Below are positions 742-12,965 of a DNA stretch of 14,397 nt, piece after piece. The stretch is from Treponema sp. GTDB taxonomy: Bacteria; Spirochaetota; Spirochaetia; Treponematales; Breznakiellaceae. Each line of letters starts with the position of its first letter. Position 1 is the stretch's first letter. Where the stretch lies: assembly GCA_031266075.1 (NCBI GenBank), contig JAISBS010000066.1, forward strand, positions 1 through 14,397, written 5' to 3'. The notes under the pieces were generated by a model. The model was not told where the DNA came from and made no database searches. It saw nothing but the letters and a program-made list of their open reading frames with translations. The position numbers and the translations under genes are program-made.

Positions 742-787
742 TTATTAGATTTGTTTAAAAACTGAAGTTTTTGAACAAATCTAATAA
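742..787. repeat. Palindromic intergenic repeat copy a: TTATTAGAT-TTGTTTAAAAAC-TGAAG-TTTTTGAACAA-ATCTAATAA (21-nt arms)
   Basis: Inverted repeat read directly. Copies share the same core at 5563-5598, 11449-11484 and 11558-11593. It lies between convergent ORF 63-620 (+) and the GlcG-like gene (-), so it could act as a bidirectional terminator hairpin. Confidence 0.7.
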
Positions 788-1595: not shown

Positions 1596-1968
1596 GGGGG
1601 TGCCCCGGTTTCGACTGATACGGTTCGGGGTACAGGCTGCAGGTGGAGTCAGACGTAAAGTCTGCAGGCGAAAGCCTGTGCCGATCTCCTGATTCGGCGA
1701 CAATTTAACTGCCAACAACGACAGTTACGATTACGCCTTAGCTGCGTAACCGCGTGGAACCTTTCCGCCGCCTTGAGGAAGGGCTTCCGCGTCGCAATCA
1801 AGGCTGGCCGATCTCCGGTTCCGGACGGGGTAAGGTGAGAAAATCCCGGACTACGGGCAGGCCGCGTGCCGTTTAGCCAAGCCGGCCCCGACAATCCGAT
1901 AAACGGCTAAACCTGTAGAAGCCTGTATTTCGCGTATCAGGACGCGGGTTCGACTCCCGCCACCTCCA
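1596..1968 (+). ncRNA. ssrA: tmRNA (SsrA), one-piece, ~373 nt; encoded tag peptide ANNDSYDYALAA
   Basis: The 5' GGGGGUG (1596-1602) pairs with the 3' CACCUCC (1961-1967), including the G3:U wobble that is the alanyl identity element, followed by discriminator A1968; CCA is not encoded. The T-arm GGACGCGGGTTCGACTCCCGCC matches the tmRNA/tRNA T-loop consensus. The tag reading frame gcc aac aac gac agt tac gat tac gcc tta gct gcg TAA (about 1712-1750) ends in the canonical ALAA-stop. Confidence 0.85.
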
Positions 1969-2033
1969 GGCTTGCCGCTTCGCGGCGCCGGACCTCCGGA
2001 AAGGCGCCCGGTTCGGGTTCGGCTCCTTGCCGC

Positions 2034-3104
2034 CTACGCATTTTGCCGGGCGATTTCCTGGAACTGGTCCTGGAGGGCGATCACCGCATCGGTAACGACC
2101 GGATCAAATTGGGTTCCCCTGCCTTCGGAGATGATCCGCACCGCCTCATCGTAGGAGAAGGCTTCCTTGTATACCCTGGCGCAGACCAGAGCGTCGTACA
2201 CATCGGAAGGGGAAGCGATCCGGGCGGAAAGGGGAATCGCCGTTCCCCCAAGGCCCCTGGGATAGCCTTTTCCGTCAAACCGCTCGTGGTGGCACCAGGC
2301 AATATCCCGGCAGTGCTTCAGATAAATGGAATCCTCGTCCTTTACCGCCTTCATCATTTCTTCGATGATATTTTTCCCCACCGTGGTGTGGGTTTTCATA
2401 ATTTCAAATTCTTCCGGGTCGAGCCTGCCGGGTTTAAGGAGGATCTTGTCGGGGATGCCGATTTTTCCCACATCGTGGAGGGCCATGGATTTTACGATAA
2501 TGTCCGGCTCCTGGGCCCGGAGTTCCTCCGCGTATACCGAACCGGATTTTATCAGATAATCGATCAGGGCCCGGCAGAAAAACTGGGTCCGCTTGACATG
2601 ACTTCCGGATTCAAGGTTCCGGTATTCGATAATGTTCGCCAGAGCCTGGAGGGTATTGTCCAGTGTAGAAGTTACCTCCGCGGTTTTTTCGGCCACCATC
2701 TCTTCCAGGCTGTCGCTGTAATTTTTTAATTCAATCTGGTTTTTCACCCGGAGTTGTACGATCTGCGGGAAAAAGGGCTTGCTGATAAAATCCACCGCTC
2801 CGGCGGAAAGGGCTTCGCTTTCGGAATCCGAAGTAGTGATGAAAATAACCGGTATCCGCTTGAGATTGGCATCGGCCTTCAAAATTTCCAGCAACTGGTA
2901 GCCGTTCATTTCGGGCATAATAATATCCAGCAGAATGATCTTGGGGGGAATCTCGGCCTGGGACAAAACTTCAAGGGCCTCTTTTCCGTTTTCCGCGGTA
3001 ATGATGTTGTAGTTTTCCTTGAGAATTTCCTCAAGAATCAGACGGTTTGTTTCAACGTCGTCAACTACCAGCACGGTTGGATTTTCTTTAGGCATTTTGC
3101 GCAA
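2034..3104 (-). CDS. Response regulator with N-terminal REC domain and C-terminal HD-GYP domain (c-di-GMP phosphodiesterase class, RpfG-like)
   Basis: 356 aa. The REC signature is VLVVDDVETNRL...ILLDIIMPEMNG...KxP. The HD-GYP signatures are HDVGKIGIPD and HHERFDGKGYPRGL. The alternative start MPKEN (ATG at 3093-3095) sits only 2 nt after the Hpt stop codon. Confidence 0.9.
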   Translation of the reverse strand: MRKMPKENPTVLVVDDVETNRLILEEILKENYNIITAENGKEALEVLSQAEIPPKIILLDIIMPEMNGYQLLEILKADANLKRIPVIFITTSDSESEALSAGAVDFISKPFFPQIVQLRVKNQIELKNYSDSLEEMVAEKTAEVTSTLDNTLQALANIIEYRNLESGSHVKRTQFFCRALIDYLIKSGSVYAEELRAQEPDIIVKSMALHDVGKIGIPDKILLKPGRLDPEEFEIMKTHTTVGKNIIEEMMKAVKDEDSIYLKHCRDIAWCHHERFDGKGYPRGLGGTAIPLSARIASPSDVYDALVCARVYKEAFSYDEAVRIISEGRGTQFDPVVTDAVIALQDQFQEIARQNA

Positions 3105-3432
3105 TCACCTTGTCAATTTCTTTTATGGTTTCGTCAAACGTATGTTTCACCGTTTCGATCTGTTCAGAATTTACCGTACGGGCCTTGATGTGGACCTCCA
3201 GTTCGAGGATCTGCCTGAAAAATTCGATCAGGGATAAATTCGCCGCCACGCCTTTTATCGTATGGGCCGAGGTCTGGGCTTTTTCATAATCGCCCGCATG
3301 AAGGAAGCCGGTCAGGTCATCCAGGCTGGCGCTGGTCCTGAATTTGGCAAGCAGCGTATAGTACAGCGCCGCGTTATTCATTACCCGCGCAACGCCTTCT
3401 TCAATATTAATAAACACCGGCTCGTCAGCCAT
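3088..3432 (-). CDS. Stand-alone histidine phosphotransfer (Hpt) domain protein
   Basis: 114 aa with the AHTIKGVAANLSL motif (phospho-His in the HxxKG context). It lies immediately upstream of, and overlapping or abutting, the REC-HD-GYP gene on the same strand. GGGGAG lies 7 nt upstream of the ATG. Confidence 0.7.
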   Translation of the reverse strand: MADEPVFINIEEGVARVMNNAALYYTLLAKFRTSASLDDLTGFLHAGDYEKAQTSAHTIKGVAANLSLIEFFRQILELEVHIKARTVNSEQIETVKHTFDETIKEIDKVIAQNA

Positions 3433-3572
3433 TCGCGAACTCCCCGCCCATCTGAAATGTCAGAAACGGACTCTTATAGTCTAATACCATGGGCGCTGGA
3501 GCGTCCATACCCCCCCGGCGGCTCCAGACTTGACCGCCAAAGGATTTGTACCACCAGAGGGGGCGGGATCTT

Positions 3573-4766
3573 CTAAAAGCGCAGCCGGGCTTTGACGGTG
3601 AGGATAAAGCGGCTTCCCCCGGAAGCATCCGGCGGGATGGGGCCCAGTTCGCCCCGGCTGCCGTTTCCGGAAAAGAGGTCCCGGTCCAGGGGGGCCTGGG
3701 CGGAGAGGTTCAGGGTAAAGCCCTGAAAGAGTTCGTGTTCCGCGCCGAGGAGCGGTACAAAGGAAATGTCGCTGAACGAGGAAAGACAGGCCAGGGTGAA
3801 GCGGGTGTAATCGCTGTATAGCCAGGTCAGGCCGGTGTAGAGAAAATGTTCGCCGGAGAATCCGGCCAGATTGCCGCTCCGTACCGATGTGGAGGAGGCG
3901 GCGCCGTTGTAGAGATATTCCATCTGGACATACCACTTGCCGTCCGAAAAGGAATAGTCAAAGCCGCTGTTAAAGGAAAGGCCCTGGATATCCGCGCCGT
4001 CTTCGGGGTTATGGGTGTAAAGCATATCCACGGTAAAACCCAGTTCAATATCCGCCTTGAGGGAGAAGCCGCAGCGGTGTATGCCCTGGAGGGAACCGGG
4101 CTTTGGCAATTCAAAGGCGTAGAGGGCCTGGATACTGGCCTTGTCCCAGTGCTGATCTCCGGAGAATCCCGCCAGGCCTCCGTCTCCTTCCAGGGCCAGC
4201 GGATCCCTGGGCGCGGAGCCGAAAAGCTGAAGTTTCAGGGAATCCAGCGGATAGGCCGTAAGGGTTCCGCCCAATACCGCCCGGGGCCGGGCGTCGGGGA
4301 TCAGGGGATTTTTGGGGTTGAGAAAATCCGAGGGTCCGAAAACCTGCCCGTAACCAAAGGCGATCCGCATAAGGCCGCCGTCAAGATCCAGGTAATCGCC
4401 CGTGAGCCTGAAGTAAAGCCGTTCCAGTTCCAGCCCTGCGGCGTAGTTTTCCCCGGCGCTAAAAGCGGAGGGCGCGGGCCCTGGAGACGCGGCCCCCGCT
4501 CCCAACACGGCTGCCGCGGGACCGCCCGCCGCGGCGGTCAAATTCAGGGCCCCGTAAAAAGAAACGCCGTCCCGGGGCTTCGCCTGCATTCGCAGATTGG
4601 CGTATTCTTCAAGGCCGTAAAAAAAATCCGGCATACTGCCCGCCCCAGCCCCCAGGGTAACTGTCGTGTCCAGAATCCCCAAAAACTCCAGCCCCCCGGC
4701 CCAAAGCGCCCTGCCCGCCGTCAGGACCGCGCACAAACCGGCCAACAAAAATCTTTTTCCGCCCAT
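3573..4766 (-). CDS. Predicted outer-membrane beta-barrel protein (signal peptide; C-terminal ...ARLRF beta-signal)
   Basis: 397 aa. The N-terminus MGGKRFLLAGLCAVLTAGRALWA reads as a signal peptide. The body is rich in Gly/aromatic strand-like segments. The last residue is Phe with an alternating hydrophobic pattern (LTVKARLRF), typical of a BAM-recognised terminal strand. It starts 5 nt after the LolA-like stop. Confidence 0.55.
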   Translation of the reverse strand: MGGKRFLLAGLCAVLTAGRALWAGGLEFLGILDTTVTLGAGAGSMPDFFYGLEEYANLRMQAKPRDGVSFYGALNLTAAAGGPAAAVLGAGAASPGPAPSAFSAGENYAAGLELERLYFRLTGDYLDLDGGLMRIAFGYGQVFGPSDFLNPKNPLIPDARPRAVLGGTLTAYPLDSLKLQLFGSAPRDPLALEGDGGLAGFSGDQHWDKASIQALYAFELPKPGSLQGIHRCGFSLKADIELGFTVDMLYTHNPEDGADIQGLSFNSGFDYSFSDGKWYVQMEYLYNGAASSTSVRSGNLAGFSGEHFLYTGLTWLYSDYTRFTLACLSSFSDISFVPLLGAEHELFQGFTLNLSAQAPLDRDLFSGNGSRGELGPIPPDASGGSRFILTVKARLRF

Positions 4767-4771
4767 GATAA

Positions 4772-5527
4772 CTACCGTTCCAGATTCCGCTGGCTGAATA
4801 CCGAATCGGGGATGGGGCGGTCCAGAATGACATTCCGCATTACCAGCGTGGTCTTGCTGTTTTTCCGCAGAAGGTCCCGGATCTCAATCTCCACCGGGAA
4901 GCGGCGGCCTCCGAAAACTTCCACCCTGACAAGATTGTACTCTTTGAGTTTCGCCCCCGAAAGAGCGAAAAGTTCATAGTGGAGGCAGTCCCCGGTTTCC
5001 TTGTCGATCCAGAGTTTTTGTTTCGGGTAACTTTCGGTCCGCTTTTTCGCGGTGAGGTCCAGGATCCAGCAGTCCCGGCTTGCGCCGTTCATGATCCAGT
5101 CCGCGGAACCGCCGATGGCCGGATCATAGCGGGCCGAGAGCGTTTCGTTTTCGATTGTGTCTTCGTAGGACATATCGGAACCCATCATGCTTTCTTTCAG
5201 CATATGTCCTGAGATCAGCATCACTTCCTCGGTATCAGGCGAATACACGTAGAGCCGCCCGCCTTTTTTCAGGTACTTGGTTCCCCGGTCTCCGGGATTA
5301 ATAAATTCAACAAAACTGTCGGAATTTCCCCTGCCCCAGAAGTTCATGGTTTTTACAAACCGCTTGTTCTGATACTCGATGATCATATCCCCTTCGTATT
5401 CGATGGTGGTATAGATCTCGTTATCATCCACCCGCCGCAGCAGTTCCGCCGCCGAGGGCGTCTGCCCATACACGAATGAGCCCGCCATCACCGTAAACAA
5501 AACCGTCCATACCAGTGCTTTCATCAT
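4772..5527 (-). CDS. Secreted LolA-like protein (outer-membrane lipoprotein-sorting/carrier-like; PF17131-type call is tentative)
   Basis: 251 aa with signal peptide MMKALVWTVLFTVMAGSFVYGQ and a soluble, acidic mature part. It is positioned between an FtsX/MacB-type permease and an OMP gene, where LolA-like genes typically sit. The family assignment is from recollection and is not verifiable without an HMM search. Confidence 0.5.
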   Translation of the reverse strand: MMKALVWTVLFTVMAGSFVYGQTPSAAELLRRVDDNEIYTTIEYEGDMIIEYQNKRFVKTMNFWGRGNSDSFVEFINPGDRGTKYLKKGGRLYVYSPDTEEVMLISGHMLKESMMGSDMSYEDTIENETLSARYDPAIGGSADWIMNGASRDCWILDLTAKKRTESYPKQKLWIDKETGDCLHYELFALSGAKLKEYNLVRVEVFGGRRFPVEIEIRDLLRKNSKTTLVMRNVILDRPIPDSVFSQRNLER

Positions 5528-5562
5528 AAACCTCCCGTGTTTTTTTAGTCCTTTAACTGGAC

Positions 5563-5598
5563 TTGTTCAAAAACTGAAGTTTTTAAACAACTCTATTA
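5563..5598. repeat. Palindromic intergenic repeat copy b: TTGTTCAAAAAC-TGAAG-TTTTTAAACAA-CTCTATTA
   Basis: Read directly. It lies in the 68-nt gap between permease 2 and the LolA-like gene, and its 3' end overlaps the permease-2 stop codon (TAA at 5596-5598). On the - strand RNA the arms pair perfectly, with one G:U. Confidence 0.7.
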
Positions 5599-6864
5599 TC
5601 TCCGCAGCGCTTCCACCGGCTCGACGAACGCGCTTTTGAGAGACGGAAACAAAGTGCAGATCGAAGTGATCAGCACGCCGAAAACAAAACCCTGAAGCAG
5701 GATCACCGGATCAAAGACAAGGGTTATGGTTCCCGCTATGGGGAATTCCTTCATGCCGCCGCCGGTGAAGATGTCCAGTTCCAGGGGGAAGAAAGAAAGA
5801 GCCAGGGTTACCATGCCCCCCGCCACGCAGCCTGCCAGAGAACCCAGGACGCTGAGGAACACCGCTTCAAAGAAAAAGACCCGGACGATCTCGGCCCGGC
5901 TCATTCCCAGGCTCCCCATCATGCCGATCTCCTTGATCCGCTCGTGGATGATCATCACCACGGTGTTGACAATAAGAAAGCTCGCCACAATAAGAAAGAC
6001 CAGGTAGACCACCGTAAAAATCATCATGCTCTGCCGCATCAGGATCACAAAATAATTATCCCGCCAGTCCCGGACTACGTTGTCTTTCCCCAGCAGGGTT
6101 TTGAATTGCGCGGTCAGGTTCCGGCTTTGGGAGGCGTCTTCGGCATAGATAAAAAGCTGCTGGGTTCCTTCTTCCAGCGCGAGGAGCCGCTGGAGCCGGG
6201 CAAAGTCAACGATGATTGCGTCTTCGTCATACTTGAGGTAATCGAACCGGAATATCCCGGTAATAACCGGGCTCCACATCTTGTCGGAGAACTGGGCCGA
6301 CACGGTTTTAAGGGGCAGGCGGTCGCCCACCCGGAGCCCGGCTTTTTCGGCCATCCTGACCCCGATGGCGCACTCGTTGGCCTCCGGTTCGGGGTAGCGG
6401 CCCGCCGCAAGACCTGAGTCCCGGCGGGTAAGGTTAAAGTTGTTCAGGGCCAGTTCCTCCCGGGCCTTGATGCCCCACAGAAACGCGTGTTTCACCGTGC
6501 TGTCCTGAAGGGTGGCGTAGGCGGTAATCCGGGGAAGAACAGCCTTTACCCCGCTGAAATTCAGCGCCCGGCGCTCCAGTTCCGCTACGGAAAGGCCCCC
6601 GGCAACGGGAAACCAGACGGGGTAATATTCTTTCTCCGCCTCGTAACGGGAGGAAACCACGCTCACATGGCCGGTGTCAAAAGTACAAACCACTTCTTCT
6701 ACGTTGTCCTTCATCCCCACCATCCAGGCCTGCATAAACACCGTAAAGAACACCGCGATAGCCGCCGCGCTGATGCAGAACAGCGTCCGCCGCCGGTTCC
6801 GCAAAATATTCCGGTACGCGATCTTGATGAGCGTCCCCGCCCCGCCAATTTTCATGCTGCTCAT
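5596..6864 (-). CDS. ABC transporter permease, FtsX/MacB/LolC-E type (4 TM plus periplasmic domain)
   Basis: 422 aa. N-terminal TM1 (RRTLFCISAAAIAVFFTVF), a periplasmic domain of about 200 aa, and a C-terminal 3-TM FtsX bundle (MMIFTVVYLVFLIVASFLIV ... ). A strong RBS AAGGAGG lies 5 nt upstream of the ATG at 6862-6864. Confidence 0.85.
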   Translation of the reverse strand: MSSMKIGGAGTLIKIAYRNILRNRRRTLFCISAAAIAVFFTVFMQAWMVGMKDNVEEVVCTFDTGHVSVVSSRYEAEKEYYPVWFPVAGGLSVAELERRALNFSGVKAVLPRITAYATLQDSTVKHAFLWGIKAREELALNNFNLTRRDSGLAAGRYPEPEANECAIGVRMAEKAGLRVGDRLPLKTVSAQFSDKMWSPVITGIFRFDYLKYDEDAIIVDFARLQRLLALEEGTQQLFIYAEDASQSRNLTAQFKTLLGKDNVVRDWRDNYFVILMRQSMMIFTVVYLVFLIVASFLIVNTVVMIIHERIKEIGMMGSLGMSRAEIVRVFFFEAVFLSVLGSLAGCVAGGMVTLALSFFPLELDIFTGGGMKEFPIAGTITLVFDPVILLQGFVFGVLITSICTLFPSLKSAFVEPVEALRR

Positions 6865-6874
6865 ATATACCTCC

Positions 6875-7042
6875 TTATTCGCCGTGGGGGTCTAATACCC
6901 TGCCCTTTAGGGCGGTCAGAATTGGTAACACCAACAAAAATGGTAGTAGACCCCCACAGTTAATAATTTCTTTACAGAACGAACCTCGTAAAATGATGCA
7001 ACGCCTACAAGATACCCCGTCCTTCAGGGCGGGGAGGTTCAT
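6875..7042 (-). CDS. Unannotated small ORF (57 aa), Cys-rich: MNLPALKDGVSCRRCIILRGSFCKEIINCGGLLPFLLVLPILTALKGRVLDPHGE
   Basis: Hand-translated from the - strand. Its ATG (7042-7040) overlaps the permease-1 TGA (7041-7039) in an ATGA arrangement. Its TAA (6877-6875) sits directly against the GGAGG RBS of permease 2. It has a CxxC-x7-C-x5-C pattern followed by a hydrophobic 16-aa stretch. It is below the 60-aa cutoff of the ORF track. Codon usage is AT-richer than the neighbouring genes. Confidence 0.3.
   Translation of the reverse strand: MNLPALKDGVSCRRCIILRGSFCKEIINCGGLLPFLLVLPILTALKGRVLDPHGE
7007..7034 (-). terminator. Terminator- or attenuator-like hairpin directly after the permease-1 stop: CCCCGCCC-UGAA-GGACGGGG followed by UAUCUUGU
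   Basis: On the - strand this is a 7/8-bp GC stem with a UGAA loop and then a moderately U-rich tail. It lies inside the operon and inside the candidate small ORF, so it is a partial terminator at most. Confidence 0.3.
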
Positions 7043-8805
7043 TCAAACCGCAGGCTTTCGGTGATCGGCATCTTGAGGGCGCGGCGGGTGGGGAAGAAGG
7101 CCATACAGGCCGCAAGCGTTGTGGCGGCGATCCCGGAGCCGATGATTACCGGAATGTTCCACGCGGAACGGAAGACGCCGGTAACCCGGTAGCCGATGTC
7201 TCCTCCGGCGGCATTGGTCATGGCACTAAAATCCAGGCCGTATTTAACCATGGGGATATTGATAAGGCAGCCTGCCGCAATGCCGATGAGGGAACCAAAG
7301 AAGCCCACCATGCCCGCTTCCATCATGTAGGTGCCGATCAACTGGCCGTCGGTCATGCCCATGGCCCGCATCATGCCGGTTTCCCGGGTTCGTTCCAGAA
7401 TGGCCAGCAGCATAGTGTTGGCGATCCCCATGAAGGACAGGATGAAGAGGATGATAACCATGATCTGATTGGAAACATTGTCCCCCTGAGAGGCCGCAAG
7501 GTAATCCCGCACATAGGCTTCCCAGGAAAAAATATCCAGTTCCTCCGGCAAGGCTGCCGGCAGGGAATATGCGGTTTTCGCCATGGTTGTTTCGGTGATG
7601 CCCGTTCCGGCCACAGCCGCTTTAATGGCCGCGGGACTCTCGGTCTTTCCGGGAACCTTTGCGTCATCGGCGTTTTTTATCCGTATGAGAAGTTCCGTCA
7701 CCCGGCCTTCCAGCATAAGTCCCGCTTCGTCCTGTAAAACATCCAGGGGAATCCAGGCGGTGTTGTTGTTGTTCCGGGGATTGGGGGAATTGACCACCCC
7801 GGCCACCACCGCGGAAACAAGCTGGTTCACGTGCCGTATGGCCCCGGCGTAATCTACCCGGACCATGGCGGTCAGCACCGCGGCCTGGAGCGCTTCGTCT
7901 TCGGAATAGAGATACCACGCCTGGGTTAGTTCATCAAACTCATAGGCGCGGTGGAAAAGCGCCCGCTCTTCCGCGTTTAAGGCCGGGGCCAGATCCACGT
8001 CAAATTTTTCCTTCCGTACCGATTCGGGGGCGGCCTTGATGTCGATGACCGTGGAGATTTGCACGTTCATCCGCCCCGTTTCCGCCAGCAGGTTCCAGTA
8101 GCGGTCCAGGTCCTGCGGGGGGATATTTTTTTTCAGGGTCTGGCGTTCCTCGCCGGGCCGGGAGGGAGCCGCCTCCGCCGGAGCGAAGAGGCCGCCGCTT
8201 TTTGCCGGCGCTTTTTCGTAGAGGCCCCGCACAAAGTCCCGTTCCTCCGGCGGCAGGCCGGGCAGAATGTCCCCGTCCAATTCATCCGCCGTGGGCCGCT
8301 GGGGAATCCCCACCTTGAGCTTGTCCGCCGTTACCGCCCCCAGCGCTATTTCGAAGGCGCCGCTTTGAATAAAGCGGCCCGACTCGATGTACCGGGGGTA
8401 ACGGAGGATCCGCGCCTCCGCCGCCGGGTCGCAGCCGATAAACTGCATGGGCGCGGAGGCCGCTTCCGTGTAGAGGGTCCCGGTAAACACAAAGCGCGGG
8501 GCGCTGTTATAGCCCGCTTCGTCCAGAGCCGCGGCGCACTGTTCCCAGCCGCCGAAATTTTCGTACATCGGAAGTTCGTCCTTTTTGGCGAAGTAGGTTT
8601 TTTTCTGGAGTTTCGCCGCGCCGATCTCGAAGTTGGCGATGTTCCGCAGGGAATCGATGTTTATCCCCGCAAGCCAGCCGTCCATAAAAACATAGAGCGC
8701 CACGCTGATACTTACCGCGGCGATGGTAAGAACCGTCTTTACCTTATGCCGCGCCAGGTTCCGCAGCGCCAGCCGTTTGAGTTCGATTACGCCTGCCATA
8801 GTCAT
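7039..8805 (-). CDS. ABC transporter permease, FtsX/MacB type with a greatly enlarged (~420 aa) periplasmic domain
   Basis: 588 aa. TM1 is at residues ~20-45 (VLTIAAVSISVALYVFM). The next TM segments begin only at ~residue 465 (IMVIILFILSFMGIANTMLLAIL). The C-terminal 3-TM FtsX bundle is followed by ...TESLRFE. Its start overlaps the ATPase stop as ATGA (8802-8805). Confidence 0.85.
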   Translation of the reverse strand: MTMAGVIELKRLALRNLARHKVKTVLTIAAVSISVALYVFMDGWLAGINIDSLRNIANFEIGAAKLQKKTYFAKKDELPMYENFGGWEQCAAALDEAGYNSAPRFVFTGTLYTEAASAPMQFIGCDPAAEARILRYPRYIESGRFIQSGAFEIALGAVTADKLKVGIPQRPTADELDGDILPGLPPEERDFVRGLYEKAPAKSGGLFAPAEAAPSRPGEERQTLKKNIPPQDLDRYWNLLAETGRMNVQISTVIDIKAAPESVRKEKFDVDLAPALNAEERALFHRAYEFDELTQAWYLYSEDEALQAAVLTAMVRVDYAGAIRHVNQLVSAVVAGVVNSPNPRNNNNTAWIPLDVLQDEAGLMLEGRVTELLIRIKNADDAKVPGKTESPAAIKAAVAGTGITETTMAKTAYSLPAALPEELDIFSWEAYVRDYLAASQGDNVSNQIMVIILFILSFMGIANTMLLAILERTRETGMMRAMGMTDGQLIGTYMMEAGMVGFFGSLIGIAAGCLINIPMVKYGLDFSAMTNAAGGDIGYRVTGVFRSAWNIPVIIGSGIAATTLAACMAFFPTRRALKMPITESLRFE

Positions 8806-9488
8806 TGTTTCACCTCGTCCGATTCGATTTGGCCGTCGCGGATGCGGATGATCCGGCGGGCAACGTCCATCACCATAAGGTCATGGGTGGAGAAGATGAA
8901 CGTGGTTCCTTCGCTTTGGTTGAGCCGCAGCATGAGTTCCAGAATTTCCCGGCCAATTTTGGAGTCCAGGTTCGCCGTGGGTTCATCGGCCAGAATCAGG
9001 GTGGGCCGTTTTATCAGGGCCCGCGCAATGGCCACCCGCTGCTGCTGGCCGCCGGACATTTCTTTGGGCCGCCGTTTTTCCATACCCTCAAGTCCCACCT
9101 GCGACAGAACCTGCCGGACCCGGTCGCGGGTTTCCCGCCTGTCCGTCCCCAGCAGAGTCAGCGGGAAGCCGATGTTTTCTTCTACTGACAAAACGGGAAT
9201 CAGGTTATATGCCTGAAAGATAAAGCCGATACTGTACCGCCGCAAAAGGGCCAGCTTTTTTTTGGAAAGATTGGCGATGTCGGTGCCGCCGACGCTTATG
9301 GAACCCCCGGTGAGGGTATCGAGGCAGCCCGCCAGATGAAGGAACGTTGACTTGCCGCTTCCCGAGGGCCCGGCAATGGCGGCAAAATCCCCGCCCCGGA
9401 ATTCCAGATTCACCCCCCGCAGAGCGTGAACCGTCTGCCCGTTTATCCCATAGTCCTTTACCAGATTTTCCGCCTTTACCACCGTCAT
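8802..9488 (-). CDS. ABC transporter ATP-binding protein, LolD/MacB-NBD type
   Basis: 228 aa. Walker A GPSGSGKST, signature LSGGQQQRVAIARAL, Walker B LILADEPTANLD, H-loop STHD. AGGAGG lies upstream of the ATG at 9486-9488. Confidence 0.95.
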   Translation of the reverse strand: MTVVKAENLVKDYGINGQTVHALRGVNLEFRGGDFAAIAGPSGSGKSTFLHLAGCLDTLTGGSISVGGTDIANLSKKKLALLRRYSIGFIFQAYNLIPVLSVEENIGFPLTLLGTDRRETRDRVRQVLSQVGLEGMEKRRPKEMSGGQQQRVAIARALIKRPTLILADEPTANLDSKIGREILELMLRLNQSEGTTFIFSTHDLMVMDVARRIIRIRDGQIESDEVKQ

Positions 9489-9508
9489 GGTATGCCTCCT
9501 GACCTTAT

Positions 9509-9566
9509 TTGTATTATTGAACTATTTATCTAGTACAATAGTAAATGAGCTAGTACAATATGTCAA
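9509..9566 (-). promoter_or_regulatory. Promoter TTGACA-N17-TACTAT of the ABC operon with embedded operator half-sites TAGTACAA (x2 direct) and TTGTATTA
   Basis: - strand: -35 TTGACA is plus 9561-9566 and -10 TACTAT is plus 9538-9543. The 16-mer ATCTAGTACAATAGTA (plus 9528-9543) is identical to the one at the GntR promoter (11265-11280). A second TAGTACAA at 9551-9558 lies in the spacer. Confidence 0.5.
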
Positions 9567-9598
9567 GTGGAAAAGGGGAAAATTTTGAATTCCGGGGT

Positions 9599-9644
9599 AA
9601 AAAAAGGGAAGCGCTGAAACCCGGTTGGGTTTTCAACGCTTCCC
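9599..9644 (-). terminator. Rho-independent terminator of the GntR-SPFH transcript
   Basis: On the - strand there is an 8-bp perfect stem GGGAAGCG...CGCUUCCC (9606-9613 / 9637-9644). It has an inner GAAACCC/GGGUUUC stem and is followed by UUUUUUU (plus A-run 9599-9605). It lies 30-80 nt downstream of the SPFH stop. Confidence 0.6.
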
Positions 9645-9675
9645 TTAATGAAAAACGGGGTTTCCGGCGGTTCCC

Positions 9676-10839
9676 CTAAGTCCCGCCTTTACCTTTTTTC
9701 TGCCGCAGTTCCGCCAGGGCTTGCAGGCCGAAGATGTCCTTCGCCTTGAGTTCCTCGGTGATGGAATTGGGTACCAGCATCATGGAGTTCCCCGCCTTGA
9801 GGCCCTCGTTCAAAATCGAAAGAATTTTGAGCTTCATGGCCGGTTCGTTTTTCGCGTAGATGGCTACCGCGGTTTCCAGCTTTTTGGCGATTTCGATCTC
9901 CGCGTCCGCCAGGAGGATCCGGCCTTTCTTTTCCCGTTCCGCCTGGGCGATCCGGGAGAGGGAATCCTGAAGGTCTTCGGGGATCTGAATGTCGGTGATT
10001 TCAATATGCTGGATGGTGATGCCCCATTCGGTGGTTTTCCGGTCCACTTCTTCCTGAATCTGCTTCTGGATGATTTCGCCATGCTCCAGAAAGGTGGACA
10101 GGTCGTGGCTGGACACGGAGTTCCGCAGGGCGGTTTTCGCGGAGAGGATCACCGCATCCTGGTAATTTTCCACTTCCAGTACCGCCTTCTCCGGATCCCA
10201 GACGAGCCAGAAGCAGAGGGCGTCCACGGTAACTGTTACTGAATCGCCGGTGAGGGTTTCCTGGGCCACAAAGTCCGTAACCCGGATGCGGAGATCCACG
10301 GTCTGCGCGACCCGGTCTATCAGGGGGATGAGGACAAAGATGCCGGGGCCCTTGACCCGGTGGAAGCGGCCAAAGCGGAGGACGATGGCCCGCTCCCATT
10401 CATCGGCTTTCTGCACCAGGGGGGCGATGAGGGCTGTGAGCGCGGCGAAGAGCAGGGCCGGGCCAAAATCGAAATCCCTTTGGGGGAACCAGATGAACCA
10501 GGCGGCCCCCGCCGTGCAGATCAGGGCGATGCTGATCTTAACCGCCGCGGCCCAGCGGGGGAACAGCGTCATGCAGAGGAGAGTCAGGGCGGGAAGGCCC
10601 AGGAGCAGCCCCAGTTCAGTTGCAGAAGGGAAGCTCCCGCCAAGGCTGAGGCCCGCCAGCACAAAGAGGACGGCGGCGGCGAGGATGCCCAGCCCCGCGG
10701 CGCTCAGGGTAAAGTCCCGTTTTTTTTCCGGCGGGGAAGGGCGGTTTTTGATGTGGGGCTTGTCCGAAAGGAAGCCTGTTTCGCGGCGCTTCAACTCGGG
10801 GCCGCCGGTTTGGTCCGGTTCGCCTTTTTTCCTAAACAT
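9676..10839 (-). CDS. SPFH/band-7 (stomatin/prohibitin-like) membrane protein with an N-terminal ~4-TM extension
   Basis: 387 aa. Residues ~45-145 contain four hydrophobic segments. The PHB core follows: EWERAIVLRFGRFHRVKGPGIFVLIPLIDRV...VDLRIRVTDFVAQETLTGDSVTVTVDALCFWLV, then a coiled-coil-like C-terminal tail. RBS AAGGAGAA is present. The ATG (10837-10839) overlaps the last codons and stop of the GntR gene by 8 nt. Confidence 0.85.
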   Translation of the reverse strand: MFRKKGEPDQTGGPELKRRETGFLSDKPHIKNRPSPPEKKRDFTLSAAGLGILAAAVLFVLAGLSLGGSFPSATELGLLLGLPALTLLCMTLFPRWAAAVKISIALICTAGAAWFIWFPQRDFDFGPALLFAALTALIAPLVQKADEWERAIVLRFGRFHRVKGPGIFVLIPLIDRVAQTVDLRIRVTDFVAQETLTGDSVTVTVDALCFWLVWDPEKAVLEVENYQDAVILSAKTALRNSVSSHDLSTFLEHGEIIQKQIQEEVDRKTTEWGITIQHIEITDIQIPEDLQDSLSRIAQAEREKKGRILLADAEIEIAKKLETAVAIYAKNEPAMKLKILSILNEGLKAGNSMMLVPNSITEELKAKDIFGLQALAELRQKKGKGGT

Positions 10840-11266
10840 CTTGCGATTCTCCTTTTTCGTAACGGTACCCGTGGATCAGTTCCGGAAGCTCCGCCTGATC
10901 CACTCCTAAATCCTTCATATCCTGTATAAAGCGGCCCAGCACTTCCCGAATTTTCCGGTTCAGCCCTTCCTCGGCGGAAGCCGCTTCTCCCAAAAGGGGC
11001 GCTTTGTCCGACACATAGGTGCCGCTCCCCACCTGGGTGGTCAGGATACCCCGGATTTCCAGTTCCCCATAGGCTTTGGCGATGGTATTGGAGTTGATCT
11101 TCAACTCCACCGCCAGGGAACGGATAGTGGGCAGCCGGTCGCCGGGCCGCATCCGCTCCGAAAGGATGGCATATTCAATCTGCTGAATGATCTGTCGGTA
11201 AATCGGCGCCCCGTTGGACGGGTTCAGGGTAAAACTGATGGCCGGTTCCGCATTTGTACTATTCAT
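10832..11266 (-). CDS. GntR-family transcriptional regulator, short C-terminal domain (YtrA-like subfamily)
   Basis: 144 aa. The winged HTH reads PIYRQIIQQIEYAILSERMRPGDRLPTIRSLAVELKINSNTIAKAYGELEIRGILTTQVGSGTYV. Only ~60 residues follow, with no FadR/HutC/MocR-size effector domain, which is the hallmark of YtrA-type regulators that control adjacent ABC exporter operons. Confidence 0.85.
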   Translation of the reverse strand: MNSTNAEPAISFTLNPSNGAPIYRQIIQQIEYAILSERMRPGDRLPTIRSLAVELKINSNTIAKAYGELEIRGILTTQVGSGTYVSDKAPLLGEAASAEEGLNRKIREVLGRFIQDMKDLGVDQAELPELIHGYRYEKGESQDV

Positions 11267-11303
11267 CTAGTACAATAGTAGATACGCTCGTACCATGTGT
11301 CAA
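11254..11303 (-). promoter_or_regulatory. GntR promoter TTGACA-N17-TACTAT (near-leaderless) plus inverted repeat TTGTACTA-N6-TAGTACAA centred on the GntR start codon
   Basis: - strand: -35 TTGACA is plus 11298-11303 and -10 TACTAT is plus 11275-11280, only 8 nt from the ATG (11264-11266). The palindrome arms are at 11254-11261 and 11268-11275. The 16-mer 11265-11280 is identical to 9528-9543. Confidence 0.5.
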
Positions 11304-11374
11304 GACGGTTTTGACCGGATCTCCAGGAGGACCGGCTGTAACCACCCGCCCTTCCGTTTTTTTCAATAATGGAC

Positions 11375-11406
11375 TTGTTCAATAACCCAGTTGGTTATTT
11401 CACAAG
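11375..11406. repeat. Degenerate palindrome TTGTTCAATAACC-cagtt-GGTTATTTCACAAG sharing the TTGTTCAA seed with the repeat family
   Basis: Read directly; the arms match 11/13. It lies in the divergent intergenic region between the GntR gene and the RND efflux operon. Confidence 0.35.
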
Positions 11407-11448
11407 TCTCGCAAAATGCTCCGCATTTTTGCTGTTTTTAAGAGGAAG

Positions 11449-11484
11449 TTGTTCAAAAACTGAAGTTTTTAAACAACTCTAATA
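11449..11484. repeat. Palindromic intergenic repeat copy c: TTGTTCAAAAAC-TGAAG-TTTTTAAACAA-CTCTAATA
   Basis: Read directly. Confidence 0.7.
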
Positions 11485-11557
11485 AGGAAATCAACAACTG
11501 CCTGAAACCGGGGTTTCCAGAAGTTCTCCTTTTTTTGTATGCTTGTTCCGGGGTTGC

Positions 11558-11593
11558 TGTTCCAAAAACTGAAGTTTTTAAACAACTCTAATC
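11558..11593. repeat. Palindromic intergenic repeat copy d (left arm degenerate: CTGTTCCAAAAAC): TGAAG-TTTTTAAACAA-CTCTAATC
   Basis: Read directly. It ends 19 nt before the GTG start of the TolC-like gene and is adjacent to the GGAGGG RBS at 11602-11607. Confidence 0.65.
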
Positions 11594-11612
11594 ATTTTTT
11601 CGGAGGGATTGG

Positions 11613-12965
11613 GTGGGGCGTGTTTTTGCCGGATGTTTTTTTCTTGCGGTAAGCCTGTCCCTGGCCTGGCCGGAGAATGACCCGCCGGGGGTTCTGTCCG
11701 GCGGCCCGCTGGTTCTTACACTGGACGAAGCGGTGCGGCGGGCGCTGGAGGAGAATCTGGATCTGAAAAAGCGGCTCATCGACCTTTCCGCCGCCGGATA
11801 CGCCGCGAAAAACCTTTGGGCGGAACTGTTCCCCTCCATCACCGCCGGAGCGGGGGCGAGTTACGGAACCGGGCTTTTTTCGGGGAACGGGTTTGAACTG
11901 GACAAAAGCGGCCTTGGCTATGATCTTTCGGCAGGGTTGAGCCTGAGCCTGAACGCGGGACTTCCCCAGACCATGAAGATCATCAAACTGGCGTACCAGT
12001 CCCGGCTGCTGGAATATGAGGATGCCCGGCGGCAGCTTGAAACGGTGATTGCCAAAAATTTTTACACCCTGCTGACGGACCGGGAGAACCTTGCCCATCT
12101 GGAAAAAACCCTTGAACTGGCGGAACGTCAGCTTGAACGGGACCGGATCGCCTTTAACAACGGCCTCAAGGGGGAGCTGGCCCTGCTTCAGAGCCGGCTG
12201 GGCGCGGAAACGGCGAAGTACCGGCTCAGCAATGCCCGGACCGCCTATACCGCCGCGCTGGGGGATTTTTTGGCCCTTTTGGGGATTCCCCAGGACAGGC
12301 CGGCGGTTCTGGATGGGGAGATCGACATCTACCCGGTGGACGCGGAGCCGGAGGCCTTGATCCGGGAATATCTTCCCAAACGGCCTGACATTCTGGGCTG
12401 GGGGCAGGCCATCGAGAGCCTTGAGTATACGGCGCGGCAAAACGCGCTGGAGGCCCGGGCCCCTTCGCTGACTTTGTCCACCCGGTGGAGCAGCCAGTTT
12501 GAACCCTTCGCCGACCGGGTGAACGGTTCCGTATCGGTTTCCATCCCCATTGATTCCTGGGTTCCCGGAACCCGAAGGGACCGGGCCCTGAAAACCGCGG
12601 CGGCGAATGTCGAAAAAGCCCGGCTGGATCTGAAAAACGCCGAAAACGAAGCGGCCTCCCGGATCCGGTCTTTGGCCGCGGGCCTGAAAAATTCCTGGGC
12701 CGGCATCGAGATTGCCCGGCTCAGTGTGGAGATTGCGGAACGAACCTATGAACTGCACGAAGAGGGTTTCCGGCTCGGTACGGTGGAGTCGCTGGCGCTG
12801 GAGGACACCCGGAACAGTCTGGCGGAAAAACGGCAGCAGCTTTTGCAGAGCGAATTGGCCTATCAAACTATGACGCTGGATTTGGCCGCCGCCCTCAATA
12901 TAGACTGGAAAATATTGGGGGATATAACAAACGCCCCGGAAGCCTCCGCGGGGAGTGAACGGTGA
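11613..12965 (+). CDS. Outer-membrane efflux protein, TolC/OEP family
   Basis: 450 aa with a GTG start, signal peptide MGRVFAGCFFLAVSLSLAWP, and an N-terminal LTLDEAVRRALEENLDLK motif. It has a two-repeat coiled-coil/beta architecture typical of OEP. The opposite-strand ORF (11592-12983) is Pro/Gly/Arg-rich and looks spurious. Confidence 0.85.
   Translation: MGRVFAGCFFLAVSLSLAWPENDPPGVLSGGPLVLTLDEAVRRALEENLDLKKRLIDLSAAGYAAKNLWAELFPSITAGAGASYGTGLFSGNGFELDKSGLGYDLSAGLSLSLNAGLPQTMKIIKLAYQSRLLEYEDARRQLETVIAKNFYTLLTDRENLAHLEKTLELAERQLERDRIAFNNGLKGELALLQSRLGAETAKYRLSNARTAYTAALGDFLALLGIPQDRPAVLDGEIDIYPVDAEPEALIREYLPKRPDILGWGQAIESLEYTARQNALEARAPSLTLSTRWSSQFEPFADRVNGSVSVSIPIDSWVPGTRRDRALKTAAANVEKARLDLKNAENEAASRIRSLAAGLKNSWAGIEIARLSVEIAERTYELHEEGFRLGTVESLALEDTRNSLAEKRQQLLQSELAYQTMTLDLAAALNIDWKILGDITNAPEASAGSER

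Follow-up and report, generated by a model that had tools for sequence, protein, structure and literature searches.

Gene organization of the locus

The window analysed here is a whole contig of 14,397 bp from a termite-gut Treponema metagenome-assembled genome (MAG). It contains a block of seven genes, which encode a GntR-type repressor, an SPFH protein, an ATP-binding cassette (ABC) transporter composed of one ATPase and two permeases, a LolA-like carrier, and an outer-membrane β-barrel (Table 1). Sequence, structural, and synteny analyses suggest that this block encodes an accessory, repressor-controlled trans-envelope exporter of lipidic or hydrophobic cargo, rather than the housekeeping Lol machinery; we put the probability of this reading at about 0.6. 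The common minus strand, the positions, and the tight packing of the seven genes in an initial annotation of this DNA were confirmed from the sequence. The same holds for the 8-nt overlap of the GntR and SPFH genes (10832-10839), the overlap of the ATPase and permease 1 genes as ATGA (8802-8805), and the start of the barrel open reading frame (ORF) 5 nt past the stop codon of the carrier gene. The barrel protein matches the NCBI entry with locus tag LBK27_04990.

Table 1. Coordinates of the genes and other features of the block in the 14,397-bp window.
Feature	Position	Strand	Length and evidence
YtrA-type GntR repressor	10832-11266	-	144 aa; PF00392 E 4.6e-17 (Pfam)
SPFH/Band 7 membrane protein	9676-10839	-	387 aa; PF01145 E 7.5e-35 (Pfam)
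ABC ATPase, LolD/MacB/DevA/FtsE class	8802-9488	-	228 aa; PF00005 E 1.6e-31 (Pfam)
Type VII ABC permease 1	7039-8805	-	588 aa; FtsX and MacB_PCD (Pfam)
Type VII ABC permease 2	5596-6864	-	422 aa; FtsX E 1.8e-19, MacB_PCD E 1.2e-8 (Pfam)
LolA-like carrier	4772-5527	-	251 aa; PF17131 LolA_like/TP_0789-like E 1.5e-43 (Pfam)
Outer-membrane 18-stranded β-barrel (predicted)	3573-4766	-	397 aa (NCBI annotation 390 aa)
gntR promoter-operator (putative)	11254-11304	-	-35 TTGACA 11303-11298, -10 TACTAT 11280-11275
ABC promoter-operator, second copy (putative)	9517-9567	-	TTGACA-17-TACTAT; would drive the ABC-to-barrel genes
Intrinsic terminator 3' of the SPFH gene	9604-9646	-	19-bp stem followed by U7; -31.1 kcal/mol, z -5.8
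Inserted structured intergenic repeat, permease 1/permease 2 spacer	6865-7038	-	174 nt; contains a 55-aa ORF, 6875-7042
REP-like palindrome GTTGTTCAAAAACTGAAGTTTTTAAACAAC	5563-5595	no strand	permease 2/carrier gap

The ABC transporter

Pfam matches (ABC_tran, FtsX, and MacB_PCD) bore out the initial description of a LolD-like ATPase with FtsX/MacB permeases. Both permeases contain the FtsX domain (PF02687) and have the organization of type VII ABC transporters, in which a first transmembrane helix (TM1) is followed by a large extracytoplasmic domain and by TM2-4; the MacB-like periplasmic core domain and the overall fold were also found. Transporters of this type work by mechanotransmission, and move their substrate on the periplasmic side without passing it across the membrane. 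According to the hydropathy profiles, TM1 and TM2-4 span residues 21-48 and 443-572 in permease 1, and residues 25-51 and 271-409 in permease 2. The periplasmic domains are therefore unequal, with about 394 aa and 219 aa, respectively. Permease 1 owes its extra length to a clade-specific insertion that folds with confidence (residues 171-311 and 383-407) and for which no separate structural match was found.

Among solved structures (PDB), permease 2 is closest to LolF (E 2.3e-13), LolC (E 1.9e-12), and LolE, and permease 1 is likewise closest to these three proteins. YtrF also matches both permeases. The scores against the Lol equivalogs are far below the cut-offs: the ATPase has 213.9 bits against LolD (TIGR02211, cut-off 307.75), and permease 2 and permease 1 have 115.1 and 40.2 bits, respectively, against lolCE (TIGR02212, cut-off 362.45). 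In NCBIfam, the ATPase is nearest to LolD, DevA, FtsE, and MacB, and it falls below every equivalog cut-off.

The two permease genes are separated by a spacer, which the initial annotation had filled with an eighth, candidate ORF of 57 aa. An ORF does exist there, but it has 55 aa and lies in an inserted structured repeat that is absent from this junction in the other loci. The spacer is predicted to form a strong RNA fold (-69 kcal/mol, z -4.4), and an Rfam search of it gave no match. In the other loci (labelled here with L and a number), the gap is typically 13-30 nt, or it holds unrelated insertions. Of the fetched loci, only L076 has a related sequence. This intergenic copy is found away from the operon and in inverted orientation to it, and one of its stems shows a compensatory change (TTGGT...ACCAA to TTGGC...GCCAA). 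A metagenome scan for the core of the small ORF found one further copy only. The ORF was rejected as a gene, since it is unconserved, lies within a structured repeat, and has an oppositely oriented copy at another place. In all probability it is spurious and does not belong to the system, and the block is thus regarded as seven genes plus an inserted repeat, not as eight genes.

Rare copies of this repeat (~170 nt) were seen on other termite-gut contigs (L076, 3531-3684 and 4748-4785; L091, 840-867). The permease 1/permease 2 junction is an insertion hot spot: L022 has a 228-aa ORF of unknown family at this place (4182-4868), and L024 has ~0.9 kb of tandem repeats (7050-7940).

The LolA-like carrier and the outer-membrane barrel

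The carrier matches PF17131 with 149 bits (cut-off 30), and this was its only Pfam match; the canonical LolA family was not matched. Its PDB matches are 3BUU (E 3e-8), 4Z48 (E 1.3e-7), 9TP6 (P. gingivalis LolA3, E 3e-3), and 3BK5. The LolA-like nature that had been proposed for the 251-aa protein is therefore well founded. The N-terminus, MMKALVWTVLFTVMAGSFVYG followed by QT, contains no cysteine, and residues 1-19 form a hydrophobic segment (hydropathy). Sequence and hydropathy thus indicate a signal peptide without a lipobox, as expected of a soluble periplasmic protein. One solved relative of this carrier family, P. gingivalis LolA3, shows no binding to LolB (PMC13103446), in line with a role outside Lol. 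A canonical pair of LolA and a LolB lipoprotein is not encoded here, as the protein encoded beside the carrier is an integral barrel.

The barrel protein has a signal peptide and a C-terminal Phe. Its predicted fold has 18 antiparallel strands with short periplasmic turns, long external loops, and the C-terminal aromatic residue, which are the features of a porin-like protein and agree with the barrel assignment in the initial annotation. The best-conserved motif of the family is GxxRIxFGYGQVxGPSDFLNPKNPL. It falls within the long loop that joins strands 5 and 6, by prediction the extracellular loop L3. The closest folds are those of ordinary substrate porins, OprD/AlgE-like; this 18-strand class includes OprD/Occ, AlgE, MOMP, maltoporin, and Wzi. 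At the sequence level, a Pfam search of the barrel and 42 homologues matched no family at E values up to 10. Nothing was found for the barrel in NCBIfam, or in a search of the PDB sequences with the family profile. The barrel family is small, with 303 cluster representatives of 1.84 billion.

Conservation of the block

A genome scan with the barrel profile identified 80 loci, nearly all of them from termite-gut Treponema/Breznakiellaceae. They include the cultured Breznakiella homolactica, Brucepastera parasyntrophica, and Treponema sp. TIM-1; T. primitia also carries the block. In 66/68 loci with sufficient flanking sequence, the carrier gene immediately precedes the barrel gene. The ATPase, both permeases, and the carrier gene occur together in 36/38 loci, and GntR and SPFH are both present in 25/29. 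The block is thus syntenic in nearly all of its relatives, in favour of the initial interpretation. The genes that flank it vary between loci, and the block itself is therefore the conserved unit.

Two neighbouring gene groups were considered as parts of the system and rejected. The Hpt and response-regulator/HD-GYP genes downstream (2034-3432, minus strand) are adjacent in only 12/64 loci. The divergent TolC/MFP/AcrB operon (11613 to the window end), a candidate for the outer-membrane route, is absent from the flanks of L001, L003, and L092. The HD-GYP response regulator is of the cyclic-di-GMP phosphodiesterase type, and there is no obvious terminator between the barrel gene and the Hpt and HD-GYP genes 3' of it.

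In one assembly, the block and its flanks occur twice on a single 84-kb contig (BNUT01000001.1; L007, 16513-37643 reversed, and L008, 46669-67799), as an inverted duplication of at least 21 kb with identical gene coordinates and identities. The duplication may be real, or the contig may be a chimera that arose during assembly or amplification. Three barrel loci (L056, L066, and L078) were binned as Chitinispirillia, Chitinivibrionia, and Chitinispirillales MAGs of the Fibrobacterota. L056 and L066 have Treponema-like carrier genes upstream (67-68% identity), and L078 consists of the barrel alone. These loci reflect either mis-binning or horizontal transfer in the termite gut.

Regulation of the block

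The GntR protein contains a winged helix-turn-helix (residues 23-85 of 144), which is followed by a C-terminal tail of ~59 aa without an obvious ligand-binding domain, as in the YtrA subfamily. Its nearest full-length neighbours in NCBIfam are the short regulators Rv1152 and PmtR. The best full-length PDB matches are 4HAM, 3BY6, 4R1H, 3NEU, and 2DU9, which are YtrA-type proteins of 121-134 aa. A putative palindromic operator at its own promoter, adjoining an ABC operon, is a further YtrA-type feature. The earlier assignment as a YtrA-like regulator therefore stands on its short length and these matches.

The promoter regions of gntR and of the ABC genes share an identical 16-bp core, ATCTAGTACAATAGTA, as initially noted. 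The two copies, at 9527-9542 and 11264-11279, lie within a 51-nt repeat of 84% identity. The two TTGACA-17-TACTAT promoters are the sole minus-strand sigma-70-like matches in 3000-11700 (8.7 kb). The window contains three copies of the putative operator word ATTGTACTAG, where 0.2 would be expected, and 0/200 shuffles reach three. One box (11276-11267) lies at the gntR promoter, inside the palindrome TTGTACTA-GATGAA-TAGTACAA; the other two (9559-9550 and 9539-9530) lie 20 nt apart at the ABC promoter. In the window, the upstream box of the gntR promoter is degenerate, and the ABC promoter retains both boxes.

This promoter-operator of ~50 nt is kept at 86-96% identity in ~30 related genomes. 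Its consensus, cTTGACAtATTGTACTAGtnCAtttAtgATTGTACTAGATGAATAGTACAA, holds two ATTGTACTAG boxes in direct orientation, spaced 20 nt apart, together with the palindromes TGTACTAGTACA and TTGTACTA-N6-TAGTACAA. These elements overlap both the -35 and the -10 as well as the start site. The gntR ATG (11264-11266) itself lies within the operator (11254-11281), 8 nt past the -10, so that the gntR mRNA is probably leaderless. Operator DNA also makes up the first five gntR codons (MNSTN), which accounts for their conservation across genomes. In the window, L045, and L038, where the ABC genes directly follow the element, the embedded ATG has changed to ATA. Most relatives have one promoter, and two are a peculiarity of the window genome. 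The promoter-operator has been duplicated there, and the gntR-SPFH pair and the five transport genes therefore form two transcription units with one operator type, presumably under the same repressor. The terminator hairpin separates the gntR-SPFH unit from the ABC promoter.

The SPFH domain was identified with 121 bits (cut-off 23.6), and the protein has four N-terminal hydrophobic segments in residues 42-143 (hydropathy). It may act as a scaffold of the pump or have a role in sensing. From the comparison of the loci, GntR and SPFH are seen as clade-specific additions outside the universal core. Two loci without both genes, L024 and L076, retain the operator upstream of the ATPase gene. In L024, the promoter-operator and a five-codon gntR remnant (MNSTI-stop) are found directly 5' of the ATPase gene (4516-4586), with gntR and SPFH deleted. 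The L024 transport genes may be constitutive unless a copy of the repressor lies elsewhere in the genome.

The cassette beyond spirochaetes

Distant cassettes were located by tblastn of the carrier against plasmids and secondary replicons. One Persicobacter (Bacteroidota) replicon has the order TetR, barrel-like protein, ATPase, two FtsX permeases, and LolA-like protein; another has LolA-like protein, two permeases, ATPase, and barrel. The latter order is also found in Vibrio campbellii. In Burkholderia thailandensis and Ralstonia, the cassette consists of the LolA-like protein, the ATPase, one fused double permease of 832 aa, and the barrel. This fusion is independent evidence that the two permeases act as a heterodimer. 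In Vibrio and Burkholderia, the cassette is located on secondary replicons (chromosome 2 in V. campbellii). The window ATPase shares 42-52% identity with its counterparts in the Vibrio, Ralstonia, Burkholderia, and Persicobacter cassettes. The distant barrels have ~380 aa, and an hhalign comparison of their profile with the Treponema barrel profile gave an alignment of 220 columns, the L3 motif among them, with a probability of 98% and E 2.6e-13. The 378-aa protein of Persicobacter psychrovividus was tried as a direct match of the window barrel profile; that match was not significant, although the link through the distant-barrel profile holds.

The carrier and barrel also occur with other pumps. 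In Haliovirga (Fusobacteriota), the pair adjoins an MMPL transporter. In Acinetobacter baumannii, the C-terminus of A1S_0116 is a LolA_like domain (PF17131, E 1.8e-45), and the next gene, A1S_0117 (424 aa), matches the distant-barrel profile (probability 95.5%, E 1.5e-8). The operon A1S_0112-A1S_0119 makes the secreted lipopeptide acinetin 505, which was found in the culture supernatant (PMC5376624). The a1s_0116 mutant lost surface motility, like the mutant of the biosynthetic gene a1s_0113 in the same operon (PMC7997844). By sequence comparison, the carrier and barrel thus recur with the ABC core or with MMPL pumps in four phyla, in varied gene orders and with varied regulators. An orthologue of A1S_0116 (L093, 4139-7789), the 'RND transporter' of this operon, was seen to be a fusion, with a lipid-binding domain of the START/polyketide-cyclase type at the N-terminus, an MMPL pump, and a LolA_like domain at the C-terminus. 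This three-part architecture is apparently unremarked in the consulted papers on the acinetin-505 operon.

A near-threshold match of the distant barrels to DUF1302, which comes from their conserved loop motif, suggests a connection with the DUF1302/DUF1329/BNR/RND (resistance-nodulation-division) clusters of Proteobacteria. Two distant representatives of the barrel family match DUF1302 with E 0.017 and 0.73. DUF1329 (PF07044) matches the Persicobacter carrier weakly (E 0.0084), and the A. baumannii fusion with 37 bits, above the cut-off of 23.1. None of the window proteins reached the Pfam thresholds of DUF1302 or DUF1329. The genes of such clusters show co-fitness (10.1101/072470). AmeABCD combines a HAE3 RND pump with a DUF1302 barrel and a DUF1329 LolA-like protein, and its deletion lowered monoterpene tolerance and increased Nile Red accumulation (PMC6394551).

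Other features of the window

The palindrome GTTGTTCAAAAACTGAAGTTTTTAAACAAC (~30 nt) resembles a repetitive extragenic palindromic (REP) element and has four copies in the window (751-783, 5563-5595, 11449-11481, and 11563-11592). One copy lies inside the 68-nt gap between the permease 2 and carrier genes, and two lie upstream of gntR. Among the fetched loci, it is present in L031 only, and it is probably no functional part of the export system. A tmRNA gene was found outside the block at 1596-1969, plus strand (RF00023, 140 bits, E 1.5e-55).

Proposed mechanism and alternative explanations

From the gene identities, predicted folds, synteny, and operator conservation described above, we infer the component hand-offs, the direction of transport, and the cargo as follows. 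The type VII ABC transporter, with one ATPase (presumably as a dimer) and two different permeases, would act at the periplasmic face of the inner membrane and extract a lipidic or hydrophobic molecule there. This molecule would pass into the hydrophobic cavity of the soluble LolA-like protein, which would shuttle it across the periplasm. The 18-stranded barrel would receive it, and either release it outward or insert it into the outer membrane; the invariant motif of its L3 loop is a likely specificity or docking element. The YtrA-type repressor would bind the tandem ATTGTACTAG boxes and the TTGTACTA-N6-TAGTACAA operators, and keep expression off until a signal arrives. By analogy with the related systems, the most likely cargo is a lipidic or hydrophobic small molecule, and not bulk lipoproteins; examples would be lipopeptides, lipids, and hydrophobic toxins from plants or wood. 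The initial view that this is not the housekeeping Lol system is supported by the missed LolD/LolCE cut-offs, the PF17131 carrier, the conserved repressor operator, and the secondary replicons of Vibrio and Burkholderia. The computational checks proposed with the initial annotation favoured its interpretation throughout, and neither of its sequence-based grounds for refutation applied.

Several observations weigh against this export model. The direction of transport is not fixed by the sequence, and a porin, a soluble lipid carrier, and an ABC transporter would also fit retrograde traffic of the Mla type. The DUF1302/DUF1329 genes of P. putida were needed for growth on fatty esters, which fits uptake too (10.1101/2020.07.04.188060). 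YtrA-type regulators have no obvious ligand-binding domain through which an inducing signal might act. GntR/SPFH are missing from 4/29 loci, and a search for the operator in two of these, L069 and L082, found none. The links to the relatives also have gaps. The window barrel profile does not match A1S_0117 significantly when compared directly (E 0.017), so this link is transitive only. The match to DUF1302 (PF06980) was obtained with the Burkholderia and Ralstonia barrels only, and its 21.2 bits are below the cut-off of 23.2.

One alternative is that the block encodes a second Lol route with a special task, in which the ABC transporter extracts a subset of acylated lipoproteins or a membrane lipid, the carrier chaperones it, and the barrel replaces LolB. 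The place of the carrier in the LolA superfamily speaks for this. A similar proposal exists for Borrelia BBJ23-29 (PMC13078400). Such a route is unlikely for the block, as all of the Lol equivalog cut-offs were missed by a wide margin. Spirochaetes have, to our knowledge, no LolB, which would suit this route; however, we know of no lipoprotein insertase that resembles an 18-strand porin-like barrel. The system is also repressor-controlled, and in some genomes the regulator is missing or insertions are present; it is therefore unlike a sorting pathway that is essential. Vibrio and Burkholderia carry the same cassette although they possess a full LolABCDE set. Moreover, one relative belongs to an operon for lipopeptide biosynthesis (PMC5376624), and another to a locus for monoterpene tolerance (PMC6394551). 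Traffic might instead run inward, with the barrel admitting a hydrophobic nutrient or an outer-membrane lipid, the carrier moving it inward, and the ABC transporter inserting or extracting it at the inner membrane, as in Mla-like or fatty-ester scavenging. The P. putida DUF1302/DUF1329 mutants, with their fitness defects on Tween 20 and butyl stearate, would agree with this (10.1101/2020.07.04.188060), whereas deletion of ameABCD raised dye accumulation and toxicity, which indicates efflux (PMC6394551), and the product of the Acinetobacter relative's operon is found in the culture supernatant (PMC5376624). Uptake is thus considered rather improbable. The order of porin, soluble carrier, and ABC transporter does resemble the Mla architecture (MlaA-OmpC / MlaC / MlaFEDB), and GntR, TetR, and other local repressors regulate catabolic uptake loci as well; however, the characterised type VII ABC transporters (MacB, LolCDE, FtsEX, and HrtBA) expel or extract their substrates, and we know of none in an import pathway.

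YtrA-type regulators with FtsX-type ABC transporters form stress and peptide-resistance modules in Firmicutes. The block could accordingly be read as a MacB/YtrBCDEF-like peptide or envelope-stress module of the inner membrane only, with the carrier and barrel as unrelated neighbours and the barrel as a nutrient porin. The resemblance of the GntR protein to PmtR and Rv1152, the match of YtrF to both permeases, and the ordinary substrate porins among the closest folds of the barrel point in this direction. Against it, the carrier and barrel genes are adjacent in 66/68 loci, and the pair recurs with the ABC core or MMPL pumps in four phyla, which chance neighbourhood does not explain. The barrel family is also small, and has no sequence kinship to any Pfam porin family. 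Such a module is very unlikely to be the whole system.

Beyond the export model for the block itself, a broader and more tentative idea may be put forward. The carrier (PF17131/DUF1329-type) and the barrel of ~380-420 aa might be an ancient, portable 'outer leg' for type VII ABC or MMPL/RND pumps. This would be a third architecture for passage through the diderm envelope, composed of a soluble shuttle and a dedicated porin-like pore for exit or insertion, and unlike the TolC-adaptor tunnels and the Lpt/Mla-type bridges. In spirochaetes that have no LolB, the barrel is a possible acceptor for lipidic cargo. The four-helix SPFH protein is translationally coupled to a domain-poor YtrA repressor; it might also be speculated that SPFH is a membrane sensor, which releases the repressor upon cargo or membrane stress.

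Hydrophobic export across the envelope is understood for few machines, namely Lol, Lpt, Mla, and the TolC pumps. The cassette points to another solution that is widespread: a LolA-like shuttle would deliver to its own porin-like barrel, driven by ABC or MMPL/RND pumps. It offers a testable role for the Pfam-less barrel family and for A1S_0117 in the Acinetobacter motility/biofilm lipopeptide operon. The same applies to the large PF17131 family of 'outer membrane lipoprotein-sorting protein', which is now annotated under Lol. Since the cassette is present in the tractable Vibrio campbellii, Burkholderia thailandensis, and Ralstonia, the hypothesis is directly testable. Spirochaetes without LolB gain a candidate outer-membrane protein and envelope pathway, and in the termite-gut symbionts the cassette may be related to the tolerance of wood-derived hydrophobic compounds.

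Comparison with known systems

The cassette and LolCDE-LolA-LolB of E. coli both contain a type VII ABC transporter, with one ATPase and two different four-helix MacB_PCD permeases. Both also have a soluble carrier of the LolA superfamily, and neither has a membrane-fusion adaptor. The cassette differs in its PF17131 carrier, in the 18-strand integral barrel instead of the lipoprotein LolB, and in being repressor-controlled and accessory. MacAB-TolC has the same type VII ABC fold and ATPase class; however, the cassette has no membrane-fusion adaptor or TolC-type duct (no HlyD/MFP or OEP gene, Pfam). The regulators of B. subtilis ytrABCDEF and PmtR-pmtABCD, and Rv1152, are likewise short YtrA-type GntR proteins that are autoregulated through palindromic operators, at the head of an FtsX-type ABC operon. 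These YtrA-regulated operons are from monoderms, and they have no periplasmic carrier or outer-membrane part; the SPFH partner is specific to this Treponema clade.

The AmeABCD/DUF1302 clusters of Castellaniella, Shewanella, and Pseudomonas also combine a LolA-superfamily protein and a dedicated barrel with an exporter that uses no TolC or MFP, and hydrophobic substrates are implicated (PMC6394551; 10.1101/072470). They use a HAE3 RND pump and a BNR propeller, whereas the window block has an ABC pump and no BNR protein. With ~600 aa in the DUF1302 barrels and ~450 aa in the DUF1329 proteins, these components far exceed their counterparts in the cassette in size. In A. baumannii A1S_0112-A1S_0119, a PF17131 domain is similarly followed by a barrel-profile protein, and the product is a secreted acylated peptide (PMC5376624). 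However, the LolA-like module is fused to a START-MMPL pump there, and the operon is biosynthetic (non-ribosomal peptide synthetase).

Borrelia BBJ23-BBJ29 is another accessory cluster of a spirochaete, with a MacB-like ABC transporter, a LolA-like protein, and its own barrel (PMC13078400). Its authors used structure prediction only and proposed that it exports a non-polar ligand, which is the closest published idea (PMC13078400, 2026). It differs in its POTRA-less Omp85-type barrel, homodimeric permease, and TPR proteins; the window block encodes neither such a barrel nor a TPR chaperone. Direct kinship with the BBJ cluster was considered and is unsupported, since tblastn of the carrier against Borrelia plasmids gave no match and the barrel is not Omp85-like. 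The T. pallidum proteins TP0786-TP0788 were also considered as a homologous ABC transporter, which proved wrong; they are Lpt components, and TP0790 is an AcrB-like RND pump (PMC8407342). No publication was found that describes the cassette of ABC transporter, PF17131 carrier, and porin-like barrel. The type VII ABC transporter, the LolA fold, and the 18-strand barrel are each familiar; their combination is uncharacterised, conserved, and widespread.

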